Shown piece after piece: positions 1,185-19,057 of a stretch of DNA of 19,057 nucleotides (the first letter of the stretch is position 1; the number at the start of each line of letters is the position of its first letter). Under the pieces are notes generated by a model, which saw only the letters and a list, made by a program, of their open reading frames with translations, made no database searches and was not told the origin of the DNA. Location: the NCBI GenBank assembly GCA_027001995.1, contig JALTLO010000130.1:2926-21982 (forward strand). The letters run 5' to 3'. The position numbers and the translations under genes are program-made. The stretch is from Planctomycetota bacterium. GTDB lineage: Bacteria; Planctomycetota; GCA-002687715; DRQF01.

Positions 1185-2395
1185 ATCTGGCCATTCGTGA
1201 TGTCCAAAATGATCTCAGTCGGTTTGCCTTGACCGCTGTTGGTCTGGGGTTATTGCTCACCATCGTGTTGGCCATGACTGGCATCTACAACGGGATTCTC
1301 CAAGATGCCACGGCTCTTCCTGATTCCTTGGGGTGTGATCTCTGGGTTGTCCAGCGCAATACCCGAGGTCCGTTCGCCGAGTTGTCTCGTATCTCTCCAG
1401 ATCTAGAAGATCGGGCTCGGGCTGTACCTGGTGTTCGGGCGGCGCGCTCTTATGTGTCGCATACGATTCAAAGAGAACTTCCCACGGGGAAACCCATTCG
1501 CTTTACTGCTGTGGGTTTGTCATGGCCAGACGACCGTGGCGAGAGACTCGCTATTGTAGATGGCCGAGCTTTATCTCAACCTCATTTCGAGTGTATTGTT
1601 GACCGCTCTTTGGGGCTCTCCCTAGGGGCTCGCCTGACTTTGGGCCGAGATGTTTATGAAGTTGTTGGGATCACCGAAGGTCTTCTTGCTTCAGGAGGAG
1701 ATCCGGCTGTATTTTTTACGCGCTCTGATGCTCAGGCCATTCAGTATGACCAATCCAATGAAGCGATTCGTCTCGATCGAGAGAGTCGGACGCGCAGGTT
1801 TAATGAAAGCTCCTTGAAGAACAATGAAGCCTTGAGGCGTCGGTCCTTGGAAGCAAACGTCTCCAGTCCGGCCCTCGGGCCACCGCCGATTGCTGCTGTC
1901 CTGATTGATGTTATGCCTGGAATTGATCCTGAAGATGTGCGTAGTCAACTGGAGGAATGGCGTGATATCACTGTCTACACTCAGGAGCAGCAGGATGAGC
2001 TGATCCTCGGAGGTGTGGTGGAAAAGACGAAGAAACAGATTGGATTGTTTCGTGGTTTGCTCGTGATCATTTCGGCAATTTTGATGTCCCTGATCATCTA
2101 CACCATGACGGTAGACAAGATTCACTCCATTGCCCTCTTGAAACTTTTGGGAGCAAAGCCCCAGGTGATTTTGGGGATGATCTTACAGGAGGCTCTCTTG
2201 TTGGGTGGCATCGCCTATGCCATTGCGATCTTGATCGGAAACGCAACCTTTCATCTCTTTCCCAGGCGCGTGGTGGTTGGCAATGAGCATCGTTTGACGT
2301 TGTTGGGCATTGTCTTTGCCATCTCTGTTGCTGCCAGCATCATTGGTATGCGAAAAGCCCTTGCCGCCGACCCCAACGAGGTTCTCGCATCATGA
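1181..2395 (+). CDS. ABC transporter permease, MacB/FtsX type
   Basis: One N-terminal TM helix, a large periplasmic domain, then three C-terminal TMs with the FtsX-like 'IALLKLLGAKPQVILGMILQEALLLG'. GTGA overlap with the adaptor gene. Confidence 0.92.
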   Translation: MNLAIRDVQNDLSRFALTAVGLGLLLTIVLAMTGIYNGILQDATALPDSLGCDLWVVQRNTRGPFAELSRISPDLEDRARAVPGVRAARSYVSHTIQRELPTGKPIRFTAVGLSWPDDRGERLAIVDGRALSQPHFECIVDRSLGLSLGARLTLGRDVYEVVGITEGLLASGGDPAVFFTRSDAQAIQYDQSNEAIRLDRESRTRRFNESSLKNNEALRRRSLEANVSSPALGPPPIAAVLIDVMPGIDPEDVRSQLEEWRDITVYTQEQQDELILGGVVEKTKKQIGLFRGLLVIISAILMSLIIYTMTVDKIHSIALLKLLGAKPQVILGMILQEALLLGGIAYAIAILIGNATFHLFPRRVVVGNEHRLTLLGIVFAISVAASIIGMRKALAADPNEVLAS

Positions 2396-7671: not shown

Positions 7672-8346
7672 ATGTGCGGACGATTTACCCTGCAAAGCCC
7701 CAGTGATGTCTTGGCCGATCTTTTTGATGTGGACGACGTACCCGGGTTAGAACCCCGTTACAACATTGCCCCCACCCAAACGGTAGTGGCTTTGCGGGCT
7801 GGTATGGACGATGAGCCTCGGGAACTCGCGTTCTTCCGCTGGGGACTTATTCCGTTCTTCGCCAAAGACATGAAGATGGGGGCTCGGATGATCAACGCCC
7901 GTAGTGAGACTGTGGCCTCGAAGCCATCTTTTCGCGCCGCGTTCAAGCGCCGCCGTTGCTTGATCCCCGCAGATGGTTTCTATGAATGGCGCAAGGTCGC
8001 TGATGACAAAATTCCATTCCACATTGGCTTCGGCGATGGCAGTGCTCTTGCCATGGCGGGCCTATTCGAGCGCTGGAAGAACCCCGACGGAAACGTGGTG
8101 GAGAGTTGCACCATTCTCACCACGGAGCCAAACCCAGAGATGGCTCCGATTCACGACCGGATGCCTGTCATTTTGGGGCCCGAGGATTGGGACTTATGGT
8201 TAGATCCGGGAGTCGAATCTCGCCAGCTCCTGGAGCCTCTTTTTTCTCCTTGGGCGGGGACCAAGCTTGTACCAGTCCCCGTTTCTAAACATGTCAACAG
8301 TCCGAGAAACGACGACATCAACTGCGTTCTACCTATTGCTCCGTAA
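7672..8346 (+). CDS. SOS response-associated peptidase (SRAP; YedK/HMCES family abasic-site protecting protein)
   Basis: N-terminal MCGRF (catalytic Cys2), RYNIAPTQ, WGLIP, INARSET, GFYEW and HDRMPVIL. Confidence 0.96.
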   Translation: MCGRFTLQSPSDVLADLFDVDDVPGLEPRYNIAPTQTVVALRAGMDDEPRELAFFRWGLIPFFAKDMKMGARMINARSETVASKPSFRAAFKRRRCLIPADGFYEWRKVADDKIPFHIGFGDGSALAMAGLFERWKNPDGNVVESCTILTTEPNPEMAPIHDRMPVILGPEDWDLWLDPGVESRQLLEPLFSPWAGTKLVPVPVSKHVNSPRNDDINCVLPIAP

Positions 8347-10480
8347 GCCTTTCCAAATGCTGCCGCAGACCGTCGATCTCATTGAGGTAGGCTCGCAATA
8401 CGTTCACAAGTTCAGTGGCTCCATCTTGAGCTCTGTTTTTGTCATTCGCCAAGAGAGCATCAGTGATGGTGGGTAAGTCCTCTGTTCCGTAACCTTTGTC
8501 CGGATGTGGCGCCCAAAGAGCGTGTTTGTACCACGGGCGCTCCTCGAGACCGTTTTTGAGGAGTAGCTTGCGGCTTGCCTGATAAATGCGACGGTTCAGG
8601 AGTAGGCGGGTTTCCAGGTTGAGATTCATGGAGCCCAGTTTTACCATCGCTTGATTGATTTTCGTCCCTACGTCGGTGACATGGTTGGCCAACTCGCCGA
8701 TTTCGCTTAAGTCGAGATTCTTGTATCTCGCTTCCATGCGTTTTTGGGTTTGCAAAAGATCAGCCCCTAACCGTTTGAAGTCAAAAGGTAAGATCTCTGA
8801 GTTCGCCAAGCGGGACACCATGGTGGCTAGGACGCCGGCCATGACCTTGTGCTGTTTGAAGCCTGGGTCAGCGAAGCGCTTCATGAAAACATAGGTATCG
8901 TAGCTCGAATGGTAGACGCCGTGAGCGCCTCCAGAGCCAATGTCGATGCAGTCGATGCCTAAACGCTCCAAGAACACGGTGTAATCGCTGCCGCTCCCCA
9001 GAGTGCCATAGCGCATCTGGCCTTTTTCATTCAACAAGGGATCGACAAGAGAACCGGGTTTCCCTTCATTGGCAATGGAGCTCAAGACGTCTTGGGCGAA
9101 TCTTGCCAAGGTGGGTACACCGGCAAGACGGAGATTCGGCCCTGAAACTGCGGAGTCTATGTTGATGTAGGCGACGCACTCTTTGCTGAGCTCTTTGGCG
9201 AATTGTTCGCCGTATTCTGTTGACCCAATGATGCCAAACTCTTCTGCATCCCAAAAAGCGAAACGGACGGTTCGGTCAAGTCCTTGCCCTGCTTCTTTGG
9301 CGTCTGCAAGGACCCGTGCCGCTTCCAAAAGTACGCTGGTTCCACTGCCTGGGTCGCTTGCACCATGGACCCAAGCATCACGGTGGTTGCCGATCAAGAT
9401 GACTTCGTCTGGGCAGCGAAGACCATTGAGAGTGGCGGTGATGTTTTCGATGAGCCTGAGGCTGTAATCCATTTCCAAGTGCAACCGAAGACGTACGGTG
9501 GATGCGTCCCCCAGATGATAGGTAATGGGGATTCCCCCTTGCCAGCCGTCCGGGACCGTTGAGCCCTTCATGTTTTCCAACAAGGGCTTTGCATCCGCTT
9601 GGGAGATGCAGGTCGTCGGCAGGTTCGGGAGGGACTTCATCTGGTCAAAAGTGAGCTGATCTTCTCCTGGAAGGCTAGGAATCCCCGGAGTACCTGGGTC
9701 TCCTGGATAGGTTGAGATATCCAAGATGCTGCCCCGTTCTACCGCCGTACTTGGCCGAAATGGCCCGTGGGGGTAGACATCACCTTTGACAAAACCATCA
9801 TCTGCGGGATCTGAGAAAAGAATCATGGCGGCGGCCCCAAACTCAGCGGCGATCTTAGCCTTGCTCCCTCTAAAAATGCGTCCGTAGCGTGTGAGGGCGA
9901 TCTTGCCTCGACAATCGATCCCCAGAGCGGCCAAACGCTCAAAATCCTCTCTCCTACCGTAATTGACGTAAATAACCGGGGCTGTGAGGTCACAGTCTGG
10001 GGAATAGGCGTTGAACGGGAGAACGGCCTTGTTGCTGGTGTCCAAGTCCAACTCTGTGGGTTCTTCCCGCAGGGAGGCCGAAAAAGCCACGGGAGCTACC
10101 ATTTCCACTTCCACATGGACCGGGTAAGGCAAGAGAACTTCATAAACGTGCCGCTCAACCTGGAATCCGAATTGGGTCAAAGTGTTCACCAAGTAAGTCG
10201 CTAACTCGGCATTGCGCTTACTACCCGCCACATGGGGCAATTTTGTCAGCTCTTTGGCAAATTTTTCGCAGGATTTGGCCCTAACCCTTTGTCTTAAAAC
10301 GGCTTCTGACTCCAAGTGGCGCCGATTTCCGTCTATTGCGGTCTCGGGTGGCTGCTCCCCAGAGTCCTCGCGGCCTTTTTCGGCTTTTAGGGCTGGATCA
10401 TCCTTGTCTTCCTGGGGTGTGGAACATCCGATGAGACATGAAAACATCAAAAAAAGTACAGAGATGAGGGTTTTTTGCAT
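8333..10480 (-). CDS. M28 metallopeptidase, glutamate carboxypeptidase II (PSMA/NAALADase)-like lipoprotein with PA and TfR-dimerisation domains
   Basis: Zn-ligand motifs GNHRDAW, GASDPGSG, WDAEEFG, YINID and YHSSYD; PA domain YVNYGRREDF. Likely start is ATG 10480 (SD AAGGAAAGG), giving signal peptide MQKTLISVLFLMFSCLIG-C with a lipobox. Confidence 0.93.
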   Translation of the reverse strand: MQKTLISVLFLMFSCLIGCSTPQEDKDDPALKAEKGREDSGEQPPETAIDGNRRHLESEAVLRQRVRAKSCEKFAKELTKLPHVAGSKRNAELATYLVNTLTQFGFQVERHVYEVLLPYPVHVEVEMVAPVAFSASLREEPTELDLDTSNKAVLPFNAYSPDCDLTAPVIYVNYGRREDFERLAALGIDCRGKIALTRYGRIFRGSKAKIAAEFGAAAMILFSDPADDGFVKGDVYPHGPFRPSTAVERGSILDISTYPGDPGTPGIPSLPGEDQLTFDQMKSLPNLPTTCISQADAKPLLENMKGSTVPDGWQGGIPITYHLGDASTVRLRLHLEMDYSLRLIENITATLNGLRCPDEVILIGNHRDAWVHGASDPGSGTSVLLEAARVLADAKEAGQGLDRTVRFAFWDAEEFGIIGSTEYGEQFAKELSKECVAYINIDSAVSGPNLRLAGVPTLARFAQDVLSSIANEGKPGSLVDPLLNEKGQMRYGTLGSGSDYTVFLERLGIDCIDIGSGGAHGVYHSSYDTYVFMKRFADPGFKQHKVMAGVLATMVSRLANSEILPFDFKRLGADLLQTQKRMEARYKNLDLSEIGELANHVTDVGTKINQAMVKLGSMNLNLETRLLLNRRIYQASRKLLLKNGLEERPWYKHALWAPHPDKGYGTEDLPTITDALLANDKNRAQDGATELVNVLRAYLNEIDGLRQHLERLTEQ

Positions 10481-10501
10481 GGAGACCTTTCCTTTGCTGA
10501 G

Positions 10502-10530
10502 AAGATAGGACGACCAGCTATTCCCGTCCA
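10502..10530 (-). promoter_or_regulatory. Possible sigma70 promoter for the M28 peptidase gene
   Basis: TGGACG-N17-TATCTT on the minus strand, immediately upstream of the SD. Confidence 0.3.
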
Positions 10531-10632
10531 CCGTAACCCTTTGGAAACTAGGCAATAATTCGTGATTTTTCCTTCCCACCCTGGCCATGGGTTTAGCCCA
10601 CCTATGGCCCCAGAAAATACTTCTGAGTAGAC

Positions 10633-10671
10633 AAAAGGAAACCCCCGGGGAATTGGCAAGCCGGGGGTTTC
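10633..10671 (-). terminator. Rho-independent terminator
   Basis: Minus strand GAAACCCCCGG-(12 nt)-CCGGGGGTTTC, a perfect 11-bp stem followed by CTTTT (UUUCCUUUU after the GC core). Confidence 0.8.
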
Positions 10672-10967
10672 AGTTCGGACTTGAAGGGTTTTACGGGACC
10701 ATTCTCGTTTGTCCGATCTATTGATTGTTACCACTTGGTAACGCTTTTCTTGAAGAGGGTCACAATCCTCTTCCCACTGCCTTTCCAGCAGTATTCGACC
10801 GGTTTTCCACAAGTTAACGGCTTGATGGAATTGGTCGTTGTCTTTTCGTTGACTCCGGCTTTGCTGCTCCTTGCCGTCGCTGATTTCTGATCAGCTTCTC
10901 CAAGGAGACGTCCAAAGCCATTTCCAGCTCTTGGATGAGGCTTCCCTTCCACGAGCTGAGTGAGGTC
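10633..10967 (-). ncRNA. Candidate stand-alone structured small RNA (~335 nt), family unknown
   Basis: Bracketed by a near-consensus promoter and an intrinsic terminator. About nine consecutive hairpins and 12 GGA trinucleotides. No convincing long ORF. The 5' end is estimated from the -10 box. Confidence 0.55.
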
Positions 10968-10973
10968 GGTTGG

Positions 10974-11001
10974 ATTATAGTCCATCGACAATCTCGGTCA
11001 A
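10974..11001 (-). promoter_or_regulatory. Sigma70-type promoter
   Basis: Minus strand TTGACC (11001-10996), 16-nt spacer, then a perfect TATAAT (10979-10974). Confidence 0.7.
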
Positions 11002-11060
11002 CACTCTTGCATCGAGCCTGGTCAATTTCATTTTTCCCCCGCTTCTTATGGTGCTTTGAC

Positions 11061-11079
11061 TTAAATCACTGTGATTTAA
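11061..11079. promoter_or_regulatory. Palindromic operator-like site
   Basis: Perfect AT-rich dyad TTAAATCAC-T-GTGATTTAA with 9-bp arms. Confidence 0.55.
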
Positions 11080-11217
11080 CACTTTACGTCATATCGATCA
11101 TCCAGGTGTCCCATCTGTGATAGGCAAGCCCGCAGCGGGGCCGAAGGTTGCAAGGTCCGCTCCTGGAACTGTTTGGGACACTCTTCGAGGTGGAGGGATG
11201 CGACAGGGGCGACGGCG

Positions 11218-11246
11218 AAAATAGCCAAAGATTTATTTTCGGCTAT
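11218..11246 (-). terminator. Possible intrinsic terminator of the GH42-like gene
   Basis: Minus strand ATAGCCGAA...TTTGGCTAT 9-bp stem (one G-U) followed by TTT, about 180 nt after the stop codon. Confidence 0.45.
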
Positions 11247-11424
11247 GAAGGGTGAGGGATATGGCTCAGGGCTATTTTAAGCATCATCCTGATCATTCTA
11301 TGTTGGTGAGATGGGGGATTTGCACCCTTCGTGTTTTCGTCTCATCCGGAATCCAACAAAGGGGACTGTCGCCAACAAGGGATGACAAGTTGTTGAGAAG
11401 GCGTTACCGAATGGGGACATTTTT

Positions 11425-13638
11425 CTAACGCGGCAAGCGAAACATGAGTGGTTCGAAGGGGAGCAAAGTAACGCGGATGGATGAGTCGCGACTTGGCCTG
11501 TTTGGATCTGTGGTTGCGTACTTTGTTGTTTGTAAAATGTCTTCAATAACCGCGGCCCGTGGCAACAAAATTTCGATGTCAATGGGTCTTAAGTTGGACA
11601 AACTTTTTGCACTGTTGGGGCGGGATGATTGCCGCCAATTCCTAAGCACAGCAATGTAGTCGGCGTGTTGGTCTTGACGATGAAAAATGCGAATGGGAGG
11701 TATGTTTCCTTTTCTGCGAATCTCAACGAAAGGACGAACCCCGGCAATGCGAAAAATGACACGGAGTTCATCTAAGAGTTCGACCCTTTGGTTGAGCTTG
11801 CGGGTGCTTAGGTAGCTGTAGGTCAAAAGGTTGAGGTAAACACTTCTACCATTCTTGCCGTGACGGTTGACGATTGTGCAAGGTGTGTCTTCTAAGCGCA
11901 GTGTTGACGCGACTTTCTGCAACATTTTGATGCCAGGTTCCGCATAGCGCAGTTCGTTGGCCTGGTGTGCGAGGGAATTCTTGAGGTCCCGTTGTCGCAG
12001 GTTGACTTTGCGGCCAGTTCTTTTGATGCCAAAGAACTTATCGAGCTTGAGGACTTCCCTTGCTTTGAGGTTCTCATCGAACAGCCCACTTTGACAGTCT
12101 GCGATGACAGTCTTGGTGGTGGCGAATCGTTTGATCACTTCTATAGCTTGGTTCGACAGGGCGATCGTTCTCGGTAACACCAAGACTTTGAATTGCGAGA
12201 GATCTCTTCTCCCTAAATCGCGGGCTGCGACATGGACGTAGTCTAAGTGGAGATCTTCCAACAACTTCTGCCAAGATTCTCGAGTTAGATTTTGGCTGTT
12301 TTGCTCTATTTCATGTTGAGCGAGTTGGTTGATCCAATTGCGACCGTCTAAGCGACCATCCAAGAGCCAATGGGCTTTGTTTGAGGCTGAGGACTCGATT
12401 ACGGCGATCTGAGCCTGAGTCGCTTGGGCGCGTTTCCAACCATCCAAGGACTTGTGGCGGAGCTTCCTAAGGGTTTTCGTCAGACGTTTGGCCCAAGGCT
12501 TAGGTTCGAGCTTTTCGGGATCGTTGAAGTAGTCCTTTGATGACCAAATGATGACGCCGTTGTCTCCACGGAGGTAGTAGTCCCAAAGTTCATGCTGATT
12601 GGCTTGGGGATGTCGATGATCTTCGAAGAGGGTGCGAAGGATGATGGTTTCTTCCTTGGCGAAAGAGCGGACGAGCTCCCGGGAACCCCCTTTGTCATAG
12701 GGTTCACAAAAGTCGATCCCCTTCAACATGGTGGCCCAGTCAATTCCGGAGAAAGGATGGGGGGCACTGCCACCGGTGAAGCCCACAGGGATCTTCTTTG
12801 TTGTTTTTGATTGGGCATAGTCGCCTAACTTCTTCACTTGTTGGGCAAAACTCATCTCAATGAATCTGCGATGATCGGCCCAAGGAGCAAAATTCCAATC
12901 CACCGGGTCTAAGATGAACTCTCGCCGGCGAATTTCCGCTGTGGTGAGGGGAAAGACGTCTTTGAAGGGTCTTCCTTTTGTGCGCCATGCTCGAGCCAAA
13001 GCCTCTGGATTTTTGTACTTATGTTCCAAGTGAAGACGGAATGCTCGCAAACACGCAGGTGAAAAACCGAAGTCCACGGGAATGTTCCGTCTACCGAAGG
13101 AAATCTCATCGTCTAAGGCTAAGGCCAAGGGTGCCCCATCTGTGAGGCGTTTGCCGAAGGGAGCCAGGACTTGATCGATTCGAGCTCTAGCTTTCTTGAT
13201 TACTTGAGGGTCAAAGAGATTGACGGGACGGCTAAGACCGGGAAGTCGGCGTTCTTTTCGCCAGTCGCTGTAGATCGCTCGCCAGGTTTCGTCCTTCAAA
13301 TAGAGGAAGCCTTTGCCAGCAACGTGATCCAAATAGAAGGGGCGTTTGTGTTTGAGATGGAGTTGGCTTGAGGCTGTTCCAGCGACATTTGTACCGCTGA
13401 CACCCAGAGCGTCCAAAGCCGAAAAAAGGGCGGGCGTGGGTTTTGATTCAGCGGTTAGCCATAGGAATGATTGATAATGAGAAAAGGTGTCGAATAAGTC
13501 TTTTTCTTGGGCAAACGTCGAAGACCCCCAAAATCCGACACTAAGGATAGGAATGATGATTCGAATCAGGAAAAACTGATGATTCCGCCCCGGAAATCTA
13601 TGGATGGCTGGGGATTCTGGGTCTGGTGATGGATTCAT
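11425..13638 (-). CDS. Secreted GH42-like glycoside hydrolase with beta-galactosidase trimerisation domain
   Basis: GH42-like segments ALDDEIS, 'AFRLHLEHKYKNPEALARAW', 'PWADHRRF' and 'RGDNGVIIW'; trimerisation-domain segments 'AQIAVIES' and 'DLSQFKVLVLP...ADCQSGLFDEN'. Hydrophobic signal ends TFA-Q. Start is likely ATG 13638 (AGGA SD). Confidence 0.75.
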   Translation of the reverse strand: MNPSPDPESPAIHRFPGRNHQFFLIRIIIPILSVGFWGSSTFAQEKDLFDTFSHYQSFLWLTAESKPTPALFSALDALGVSGTNVAGTASSQLHLKHKRPFYLDHVAGKGFLYLKDETWRAIYSDWRKERRLPGLSRPVNLFDPQVIKKARARIDQVLAPFGKRLTDGAPLALALDDEISFGRRNIPVDFGFSPACLRAFRLHLEHKYKNPEALARAWRTKGRPFKDVFPLTTAEIRRREFILDPVDWNFAPWADHRRFIEMSFAQQVKKLGDYAQSKTTKKIPVGFTGGSAPHPFSGIDWATMLKGIDFCEPYDKGGSRELVRSFAKEETIILRTLFEDHRHPQANQHELWDYYLRGDNGVIIWSSKDYFNDPEKLEPKPWAKRLTKTLRKLRHKSLDGWKRAQATQAQIAVIESSASNKAHWLLDGRLDGRNWINQLAQHEIEQNSQNLTRESWQKLLEDLHLDYVHVAARDLGRRDLSQFKVLVLPRTIALSNQAIEVIKRFATTKTVIADCQSGLFDENLKAREVLKLDKFFGIKRTGRKVNLRQRDLKNSLAHQANELRYAEPGIKMLQKVASTLRLEDTPCTIVNRHGKNGRSVYLNLLTYSYLSTRKLNQRVELLDELRVIFRIAGVRPFVEIRRKGNIPPIRIFHRQDQHADYIAVLRNWRQSSRPNSAKSLSNLRPIDIEILLPRAAVIEDILQTTKYATTDPNRPSRDSSIRVTLLPFEPLMFRLPR

Positions 13639-13810
13639 GGAGATCCTATGTGGTGATTTTGTTTCCCAAACCAAGACTACGCTGGACTTTCGGAGCGATC
13701 AAGCGATGGCCCTGAAGCTAAGAAAATGAAACATTTGGAATCTCTCCGATGTTTGATCGTCTCAGATGCTGTGTTTGTATCTTTTAGGATAACCAAGTCT
13801 CAGACGAAAA

Positions 13811-17995: not shown

Positions 17996-18190
17996 TCACT
18001 CACTCAGTTCGGAGTTGTCATCTAGGGCTCGGGAAAAGCCGTAGTTGCCGTCAAACCAATGGCCCAAGTCGATCATCTTGCAGCGTTCAGAACAGAACGG
18101 GAAGTTGGGGAAGGCTTGGAGGACGAGTTTGGGGTCTTTCGTGGCCAAGACAATCGACTCTTTGCAGATGGGGCAGGTTGGATGAGACAT
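17996..18190 (-). CDS. yacG: DNA gyrase inhibitor YacG
   Basis: CPIC...PFCSERCKMIDLGHW zinc-finger motif and acidic tail. ATG 18190 overlaps the upstream TGA (TGATG). Confidence 0.92.
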   Translation of the reverse strand: MSHPTCPICKESIVLATKDPKLVLQAFPNFPFCSERCKMIDLGHWFDGNYGFSRALDDNSELSE

Positions 18191-18450
18191 CAGTTGGAGC
18201 ACTTTCCGTTTTTGCGCCCATGATTGCTATCTGGTTTGTCATTGGACTTCCCACTCTTGTAGTTCTCGCTGCGATAGTCCGTGGTGTAGAAGCCGGAGCC
18301 TTTGAAAAGGAAACCGGCACCGCTGCCAAAGAGTCTTTGCAACTTCATTTTCTTGCAAGATGGACATTTCTTCTTGACCGCATCGCTCACGTTCTGCAGT
18401 AGTTCAAAGCCGTGACCGCAAGCATCGCATTCGTAGTTGTAAGTTGGCAT
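18190..18450 (-). CDS. FmdB-family zinc ribbon protein
   Basis: MPTYNYECDACGHGFE...CPSC...FKGSGFYTTDYR. SD AAGGAG precedes ATG 18450. Confidence 0.92.
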   Translation of the reverse strand: MPTYNYECDACGHGFELLQNVSDAVKKKCPSCKKMKLQRLFGSGAGFLFKGSGFYTTDYRSENYKSGKSNDKPDSNHGRKNGKCSN

Positions 18451-18487
18451 GATGTAAGCTCCTTCAGTACGCCGCAACCGACCCGTA

Positions 18488-19057
18488 CTACTGATCTTCA
18501 CCTGTTGAATTGTCGTCAGAAGAATCCTCTGATGATTCGGGGGCAACCGAGACAACCACCCGCGCATGGCGGAGCACAATGTCATTCATGGTGTAACCCC
18601 GAGCGACTTCACTCAAGACGACATTGGGCTCCACGTCTTCCTTCTCTTCCTGAGAAACAGCTTCGTGCATTTTTGGATCAAATGGCTTGTCTATTGCAAC
18701 GATGGGTTTGATGCCGTTGTCAGCCAGAAGTTTCTCTAACATCTCGTGAATCATCTTGACGCCAATAAGAACGTTTTTGGCATCTTGGCCTTGATCCAGA
18801 GCTTTCATCGCTGAGCCAAAATTGTCGACGATTGGCAAGACTTGCTCAAAGACATCGCGGCGCACAAAGAGGCGGGCGTCTTTCTGACGCTTCTCTGTTT
18901 GCTTGCGGAAGTTCATGAACTCCGCCGTGGTTCTTTGCAAGCGATCTCGCAACTCGGCGATTTCTTCTGCCGGGTCTTTTTCCTCTTGCTCAGCAGCCTT
19001 GGCCGCAACTTCGTCGGTGTTTTCTGCGCTGTGTCGCAACACATCCAGTATCAGCTG
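18488..19057 (-). CDS. grpE: Nucleotide exchange factor GrpE (5' end probably outside window)
   Basis: AEFMNFRK, LPIVDNF, FDPKMHEAV and RGYTMNDIVLRHARVVVS. The frame is open to the window edge. Confidence 0.95.
   Translation of the reverse strand, partial: QLILDVLRHSAENTDEVAAKAAEQEEKDPAEEIAELRDRLQRTTAEFMNFRKQTEKRQKDARLFVRRDVFEQVLPIVDNFGSAMKALDQGQDAKNVLIGVKMIHEMLEKLLADNGIKPIVAIDKPFDPKMHEAVSQEEKEDVEPNVVLSEVARGYTMNDIVLRHARVVVSVAPESSEDSSDDNSTGEDQ

Follow-up and report, generated by a model that had tools for sequence, protein, structure and literature searches.

What RNA is encoded on the minus strand at positions 10633-11001 of this planctomycete DNA, and on what does it act? The window, by which we mean the whole stretch of 19,057 nucleotides that was analyzed, belongs to a source genome (G000) with an assembly of 5.2 Mb that is about 92% complete, and at these positions it holds a promoter-to-terminator unit. 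Comparison across a bacterial order suggests that the unit is probably a trans-encoded regulatory small RNA that represses the mRNA of a histone H1-like protein as its one main target. Its function-bearing feature would be a pair of near-invariant loops complementary in trans to that one mRNA, a feature absent from the preliminary description of the locus.

A promoter-to-terminator unit

The features of the unit, its neighbors and its predicted target are collected in Table 1. The promoter claimed earlier for positions 11001-10974 of the minus strand is present there: TTGACC-16-TATAAT agrees with the sigma70 consensus at 11 of 12 positions, and this exact motif occurs only once in the 5.2 Mb of the source genome. 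From the position of the promoter, transcription would start near 10967. The 11-bp terminator described at the other end is also seen, with its stem, 12-nt loop and U-run; a terminator scanner overlooked it because the scanner has a loop limit of 8 nt. Comparison of the fold with shuffled sequence, proposed when the unit was first described, comes out in its favor, with a full-length RNA of -127.2 kcal/mol (z -6.0) and none of 100 shuffles equally stable. The 3′ core alone folds at z -4.2. All nine stems of the preliminary description can form in isolation at their coordinates, and seven have a pair probability of at least 0.88 in the full-length ensemble; the remaining two, at 10897-10908 and 10856-10876, have a probability of 0.0 in that ensemble and are replaced by a longer helix.

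Table 1. Features of the unit on the minus strand of the window, of the adjoining genes and of the predicted target in the source genome (f1 is the window's own family)
Feature	Position	Strand	Basis or remark
-35 hexamer TTGACC	10996..11001	-	sigma70-type scan
-10 hexamer TATAAT	10974..10979	-	kept in 9/9 f1 genomes
5′ structured, fast-evolving region (hairpin chain)	10749..10967	-	z -5.7; role unexplained
Small hairpin GTTAC-N6-GTAAC	10727..10742	-	family-level alignment
Hairpin H2, UCGGA...UCCGA closing stem, presents seed 1	10675..10716	-	core alignment
Seed 1	10687..10706	-	near-invariant 10-mer 10700-10691; open loop 10697-10690
Intrinsic terminator, 11-bp stem, 12-nt loop, U-run	10633..10671	-	stem kept in 23/23 order genomes
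Seed 2, the 12-nt terminator loop	10649..10660	-	complementary to target start-codon region
GH42 beta-galactosidase-like protein, 749 aa	11425..13674	-	upstream; marks syntenic position
M28 peptidase, PA and TfR-dimer domains, likely start 10480	8333..10588	-	Pfam; downstream, outside the system
Target gene, histone H1-like	G000:C130:37382-37846		154 aa, MAKK.../AKK repeats, UUG start

The 749-aa protein encoded upstream at 11425-13674 has no Pfam or NCBIfam match, and its assignment comes from an Atlas feature score of 0.99 to GH42 clusters. A GH42-like gene was seen upstream of the RNA in 16 of 23 loci, across three families; some of the loci are truncated.

Conservation is confined to the 3′ core

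The unit is found in all 23 genomes of one Planctomycetota order, with a length of 174-359 nt. BLAST matched both ends of the unit, that of the promoter and the 3′ one, in eight of eight family relatives, a covariance model reached 18 of the 23 order genomes (E <= 0.5), and the other five were added by motif inspection. Collecting homologs in this way, as had been proposed, recovered promoter, core and terminator in every one of the 23. The layout is constant and consists of a sigma70-type promoter, a variable 5′ part, H2 with an almost invariant GGUCCCGUAA, and the terminator. The promoter reads TTGAC[AC]-16/18-TAnnnT in 22 of the genomes and TTGCCA-17-TATAGT in the twenty-third.

Conservation is restricted to the 3′ ~90 nt of the RNA. 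The part upstream of the core spans 72-266 nt in homologs, at z -0.3 to -6.3 (statistics that omit G003, which has an N-run, and G017, which is without a strict promoter match), and its BLAST similarity is almost confined to within genera. The emphasis placed on the hairpin chain in the preliminary description was therefore misplaced, since that part is without conservation beyond genera. Within the core, 92.9% of cells are paired across 24 distinct sequences, compared with 86.5 +/- 0.9 for shuffled and at most 65% for slid controls, and both sides have changed in seven pairs; because the same sequences served to derive the structure, this test is biased upward. H2 has 96.5% of cells paired with two pairs changed on both sides, and in the terminator stem four of nine pairs have so changed.

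Beyond the order the signal falls away. A covariance model (R2) run over 151 genomes of the phylum scored 62-85 bits in the seven genomes of the order and at most 33.5 bits outside it, where 36 of 144 genomes gave matches. The top 10 out-of-order matches resemble plain terminators, and the loop hexamer lies near four of 23 outside loci; homologs are therefore claimed within the order only. A metagenome scan returned 16 loci, four of them homologs and 12 unrelated, and blastn against a phage collection gave no match.

Several minor observations concern the 5′ part and the scans. The small hairpin GTTAC-N6-GTAAC keeps three of its five pairs intact in 9/9 f1 genomes, with the other two broken in one or two of them; its spacing is fixed in f1, five such sites occur in the genome, and it may act either as a hairpin in the RNA or as an operator in the DNA. 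Words of the form TGTGGA(A/G), which resemble the DnaA-box consensus, occur at 10800-10811 (-) of the window and, among f1 members, in the 5′ part of several (L009, L010, L012, L016); TGTGGA is present in the 5′ part of only five of 21 homologs. The N-run in the 5′ region of the G003 assembly hints at a short repeat. Six metagenome records (L199, L205, L208, L211, L212, L214) carry a repeated element near contig ends that matched the search pattern by chance and is unrelated to the RNA; it resembles a mobile sequence present in many copies.

A lysine-rich histone H1-like gene as the predicted target

A reverse-complement copy of the H2 loop lies 24 kb from the RNA gene, in the leader of a gene for an AKK-repeat protein (Table 1). 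The protein matches Pfam HC2 below cut-off (E 3.5e-6, 27.7 of 40 bits) and also falls below the cut-off of the NCBIfam histone H1-like model hist_H1_lk; we infer that it binds DNA. A protein search with this low-complexity query recovered the gene in only five of 23 genomes and passed over copies already known, and detection therefore relied on DNA patterns; one such pattern missed the targets of G009 and G018, and another found both. The target with its leader was found in 20 of the 23 order genomes, and the products are lysine-rich and 21-154 aa long, some of them clipped by contig ends. In G002 it is missing because the contig ends ~2.4 kb before the expected place, and in G019 and G020 the DNA patterns did not find it. 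A scan of genome contigs gave 25 loci, of which the seven translated comprise four lysine-rich targets and three chance matches.

The strict form of the leader pattern occurs in 18 of 23 order genomes and in 0 of 378 other genomes of the phylum, so the RNA and its site co-occur. Where RNA and target share a contig, in 12 genomes, they are 19-30 kb apart in 11 and 227 kb apart in one. In 16 of 18 leaders the segment complementary to the H2 loop (site 1) lies 28-56 nt downstream of a -10 box of sigma70 type, and site 1 is therefore inside the mRNA.

The target genes have some features of their own. Among their leaders (L096-L106, L245-L260), most are predicted to hide the Shine-Dalgarno sequence within a hairpin that costs 4-14.5 kcal/mol to open, and the start codon is usually UUG; target expression seems, from these predicted folds and starts, to be damped at several levels. 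In five genomes (G014, G009, G018, G015 and G010; loci L247, L245, L246, L259 and L260, respectively) the target has shrunk to 21-24 lysine/alanine-rich codons and keeps its full leader and terminator. Genes of this size are probably unannotated.

Two seeds that co-vary with their sites

Seed 1, in the H2 loop, can form 16 contiguous base pairs with the leader of the histone-like mRNA in the source genome, at a site ~50 nt upstream of the target start. Seed 2, in the terminator loop, can pair with the start-codon region from -4 to +9 with one bulge. Among 4951 candidate starts in the source genome, and in scan windows chosen after the target had been seen, the target ranks first for seed 1 (-33.2 versus -28.0 for the next), second for seed 2 (-15.9 kcal/mol), and first for the sum of the two (-49.1 versus -34.6, a margin of 14.5 kcal/mol). 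Both loops appear accessible, with opening costs in the source genome of 0.0 kcal/mol for seed 1 and 0.2 kcal/mol for seed 2, and site 1 is itself predicted to lie within a hairpin loop of the target leader.

Complementarity at site 1 extends through the order. The seed-1 10-mer is fully paired in 16 of the 20 RNA/target pairs and at nine of ten positions in the other four, and contiguous helices span 9-18 bp. For the two columns that flank the 10-mer on its 3′ side, three states are seen (A-A/A-C, G-C and C-C), and pairing nevertheless holds in 15 and 16 of 17 distinct pairs. At this site the genus-level permutation test has p 0.0003-0.0098, a value to be read with the knowledge that kin are not independent and that both partners are hairpins with constraints of their own. 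Mismatches without compensation are present in G009, G018, G010 and G013. In G020 seed 1 is degenerate or lost, and no target was found there.

At site 2, the cognate seed-2 duplex is in the best 2.4% of 2000 background starts, drawn from the source genome only, for 15 of the 20 pairs; it is weak in G012 and G014 and lost in G011, G013 and G016. In genus g7 the target has an AUG start after an added C, and the terminator loop reads a matching UGAUUCCC, which gives 8 bp plus a G-U. In G009 and G018 loop and target have both changed at -2 and -1, so that 8 bp form at -15.6, compared with -11.0 on the f1 target; both have changed at -1 in G017, and in G012 the loop changes alongside the start context, weakly. 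Permutation at genus level gives p <0.0001-0.015, again with kin that are not independent, and within family f1 alone significance is not reached (p 0.20). Only 3 of 18 RNAs at site 1, and 4 of 18 at site 2, have their cognate target as best partner.

A model for repression by two loops

In the model that we consider most probable, the conserved 3′ core presents two single-stranded loops to the histone-like mRNA. Seed 1 would meet the complementary loop of the leader hairpin in a loop-loop capture that extends to 9-18 bp, and the terminator loop would then pair across the start codon and block initiation. Pairing in the cell would presumably proceed without Hfq, for which a search of the 23 order genomes gave no match (the control was detected in 5 of 14). 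The two sites occur in the same 5′-3′ order on both RNAs. With this order the small RNA cannot be a leader copied in inverted form, and simultaneous pairing at both sites would need a looped geometry; the joint fold of the two RNAs covered pairing at site 1 only. Occupancy of site 1 shifts the opening cost of the ribosome binding site by at most 1.5 kcal/mol, which is not activator-like, and activation through opening of the Shine-Dalgarno hairpin was rejected on these grounds.

The unit has sequence features expected of a trans-encoded small RNA. It has its own promoter and terminator, it is intergenic in 23 of 23 genomes, and it has no conserved reading frame. Its accessible seeds face an unlinked mRNA, with site 1 in 20 of 20 pairs and a strong site 2 in 15 of 20.

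Alternative explanations

The pairing could be real and have an outcome other than repression: the mRNA might be stabilized or processed, or the leader of the abundant mRNA might serve as a sponge or decay trigger for a small RNA with weightier targets elsewhere. We judge this improbable, yet it draws on several observations. Site 1, which is universal, falls outside the ribosome footprint at 42-51 nt before the start, and it is the sole remaining site in three of the 20 pairs. A second seed-1 complement, ranked 2 of 4951, is found in the source genome at C178 ~12427-12440 (L074), ~70 nt upstream of an AAA ATPase gene that we take to be of the MoxR type from its GVPGLAKT motif. However, in 15 of the 20 pairs the start codon lies within site 2, the Shine-Dalgarno hairpin is not opened by binding at site 1, and the same pattern detected no complement upstream of the MoxR gene in eight family relatives.

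A different concern is that the 10-mer with its inverted arms might be a DNA element, an operator or an alternative-sigma promoter element, at both loci, so that the complementarity would be a by-product and the role of the RNA a different one. At each locus the copy forms an imperfect inverted repeat about a common spacer, and lineage drift of protein specificity would likewise yield co-variation at site 1. The mismatches at this site carry no strand-specific signal, with G-U and A-C equally frequent (15 and 15). Against such an element, seed 2 and its co-variation with the start-codon context would be left unexplained, the orientation of the motif relative to transcription is always opposite at the two loci with a variable distance to the promoter, and each genome has only one to four copies. 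The one-side changes in H2, moreover, all lead to G-U on the minus strand. These points make the DNA reading quite unlikely; a reading of the motif as an ECF promoter was dropped by eye for its variable spacing.

We give still less weight to the idea that the unit is a leader or attenuator, such as a riboswitch or T-box-like element, of the downstream M28 peptidase gene. The two are on the same strand and adjacent in 9/9 family genomes, and the possible promoter that the preliminary description had assigned to the peptidase was not borne out: a sigma70-like scan of 9500-12000 found no further minus-strand site, so that read-through may express the peptidase. Adjacency ends with f1, however. 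The core persists in the other 14 genomes without a neighboring peptidase gene (in G013 the gene is 3.4 kb off), the ~1.1-1.5 kb of downstream sequence examined in 13 genomes contains no match to it, and Rfam gives no riboswitch match. With adjacency in 9/9 family genomes and 0/14 others, the unit is very probably not a peptidase leader, which agrees with its initial description as an independent noncoding RNA gene.

The reading that fares worst, scarcely credible to us, is that of a divergent housekeeping or protein-titrating RNA (SRP, 6S, tmRNA, RNase P or CsrB-like) or a small-protein mRNA: SRP RNA and 6S have no match in the source genome itself, at its 92% completeness, and the RNA has 12 GGA triplets, but tmRNA and RNase P RNA both lie elsewhere in that genome, SRP RNA over cut-off (five of five kin) and weak 6S matches (four of five) lie at other loci in kin, GGA is not enriched across 21 homologs, and no Shine-Dalgarno-led frame is shared. 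The four housekeeping RNAs, whose hallmarks the preliminary description did not see, are thus not supported, and the missing SRP RNA and 6S are probably assembly gaps. In keeping with the unknown family of the preliminary description, the RNA matches no Rfam family: Rfam 15 at gathering threshold gave 0 matches in the window (best local E 1.6) and 0 in 14 homolog and target loci. ARAGORN found nothing in the window; in the source genome it lists a selenocysteine tRNA. As to coding capacity, the source genome has no Shine-Dalgarno-led reading frame of at least 12 aa in the RNA, and different genera have none in common. An ATG-GTC-CCG-TAA frame in H2 was dropped on account of an ATG missing in two of nine family members, and a CsrB/RsmZ-type sponge was rejected on the GGA count (12 versus 8.9 expected in the source genome).

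Comparison with known systems

Chlamydia and Planctomycetota belong to the same PVC superphylum. The closest parallel to the RNA described here is the IhtA/hctA small RNA circuit of Chlamydia (PMC4355289, PMC3469542), in which, without Hfq, a 7-nt IhtA loop pairs over the AUG and so represses translation of HctA, a histone H1-like protein (PMC4355289). Both are trans-encoded stem-loop RNAs that end in an intrinsic terminator and act in an Hfq-less host, and in both a loop, here by prediction, covers the start codon of an mRNA for a histone H1-like protein. There are also differences. The seed of IhtA consists of 7 nt of loop 1, and the RNA can do without its terminator loop, whereas here the terminator loop is predicted to cover the start, and the planctomycete RNA has an extra, longer seed (9-18 bp) ~50 nt upstream. 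The planctomycete target resembles, below cut-off, the repeats of the HC2/HctB type rather than Hc1, and IhtA is described as not repressing hctB. The IhtA locus adjoins sctC, whereas the planctomycete RNA lies between a GH42-like gene and an M28 peptidase. We therefore suggest, from anatomy and target description, that the RNA may work like IhtA, and we do not file it as IhtA.

A bolder reading would have an order-wide anti-histone small RNA clamp one mRNA with two loops in parallel order that co-evolved with it base for base across four families, with IhtA/HctA as a parallel or a relative by shared deep ancestry. It would mean that free-living PVC bacteria gate chromosome condensation by RNA, perhaps in connection with a cell form for dormancy or dispersal. 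We regard this larger picture as speculative and, taken whole, rather doubtful.

Other systems share single elements. In the type I toxin-antitoxin pair SR4/bsrG of Bacillus subtilis the terminator loop is a functional site (PMC3834814), as is also reported for E. coli small RNAs that act on fepA (PMC11979758). The terminator loop of SR4 pairs, and loop-loop contact comes first with the mRNA of a small protein, as proposed here; the bsrG product is hydrophobic and the planctomycete target basic. The genes of SR4 and bsrG overlap as cis-antisense partners. The RNA and target genes described here are instead 19-30 kb apart in 11 of the 12 same-contig cases and 227 kb in the other, so that the overlapping or adjoining layout of type I antitoxins is not seen. 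LhrC of Listeria monocytogenes pairs at multiple sites independently of Hfq and blocks translation (PMC4132741). It similarly exposes several pyrimidine-rich sites with Hfq dispensable for pairing, and it differs in being multicopy with redundant CU-rich sites, whereas the planctomycete RNA is single-copy and directs two different seeds to two sites on one mRNA.

Significance and further observations

We consider the order-wide, uncatalogued small RNA to be real and its co-varying histone-like target to be strongly predicted. A search of full-text literature, which takes in few subscription papers and no supplements, returned no report of such a planctomycete RNA, which may sit in a large ncRNA table, and none of small RNA control over a planctomycete histone-like protein; IhtA was the only case of a small RNA acting on a histone-like protein found within that scope. 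Planctomycetes have condensed nucleoids. If confirmed, the pair would put names to a regulator and its target in the nucleoid compaction of these bacteria, and would be a second PVC case of RNA control over a histone-like protein. It would also be a rare small RNA-target pair with natural compensatory changes throughout an order, testable in a reporter strain.

Two observations lie beside this argument. In genus g2 (G003, G007) there is a second structured unit of ~200 nt (L069:1462-1665 (+) and L068 ~1350-1555 (-), z -5.75), which has a terminator of its own and carries the two seed motifs in reversed order. Its other strand has a perfect 17-nt seed-1 complement followed by a seed-2 complement, preceded by a Shine-Dalgarno-led hydrophobic reading frame. 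The unit has no Rfam match, a pattern search found no such locus in the other seven family genomes, and it could be either a sibling small RNA or a sponge or second target. The interval between RNA and target in the source genome (window 18190-19042 and G000:C130:22000-26979) contains grpE, identified by Pfam, together with a dnaJ-like and two groEL-like genes that were recognized by eye.
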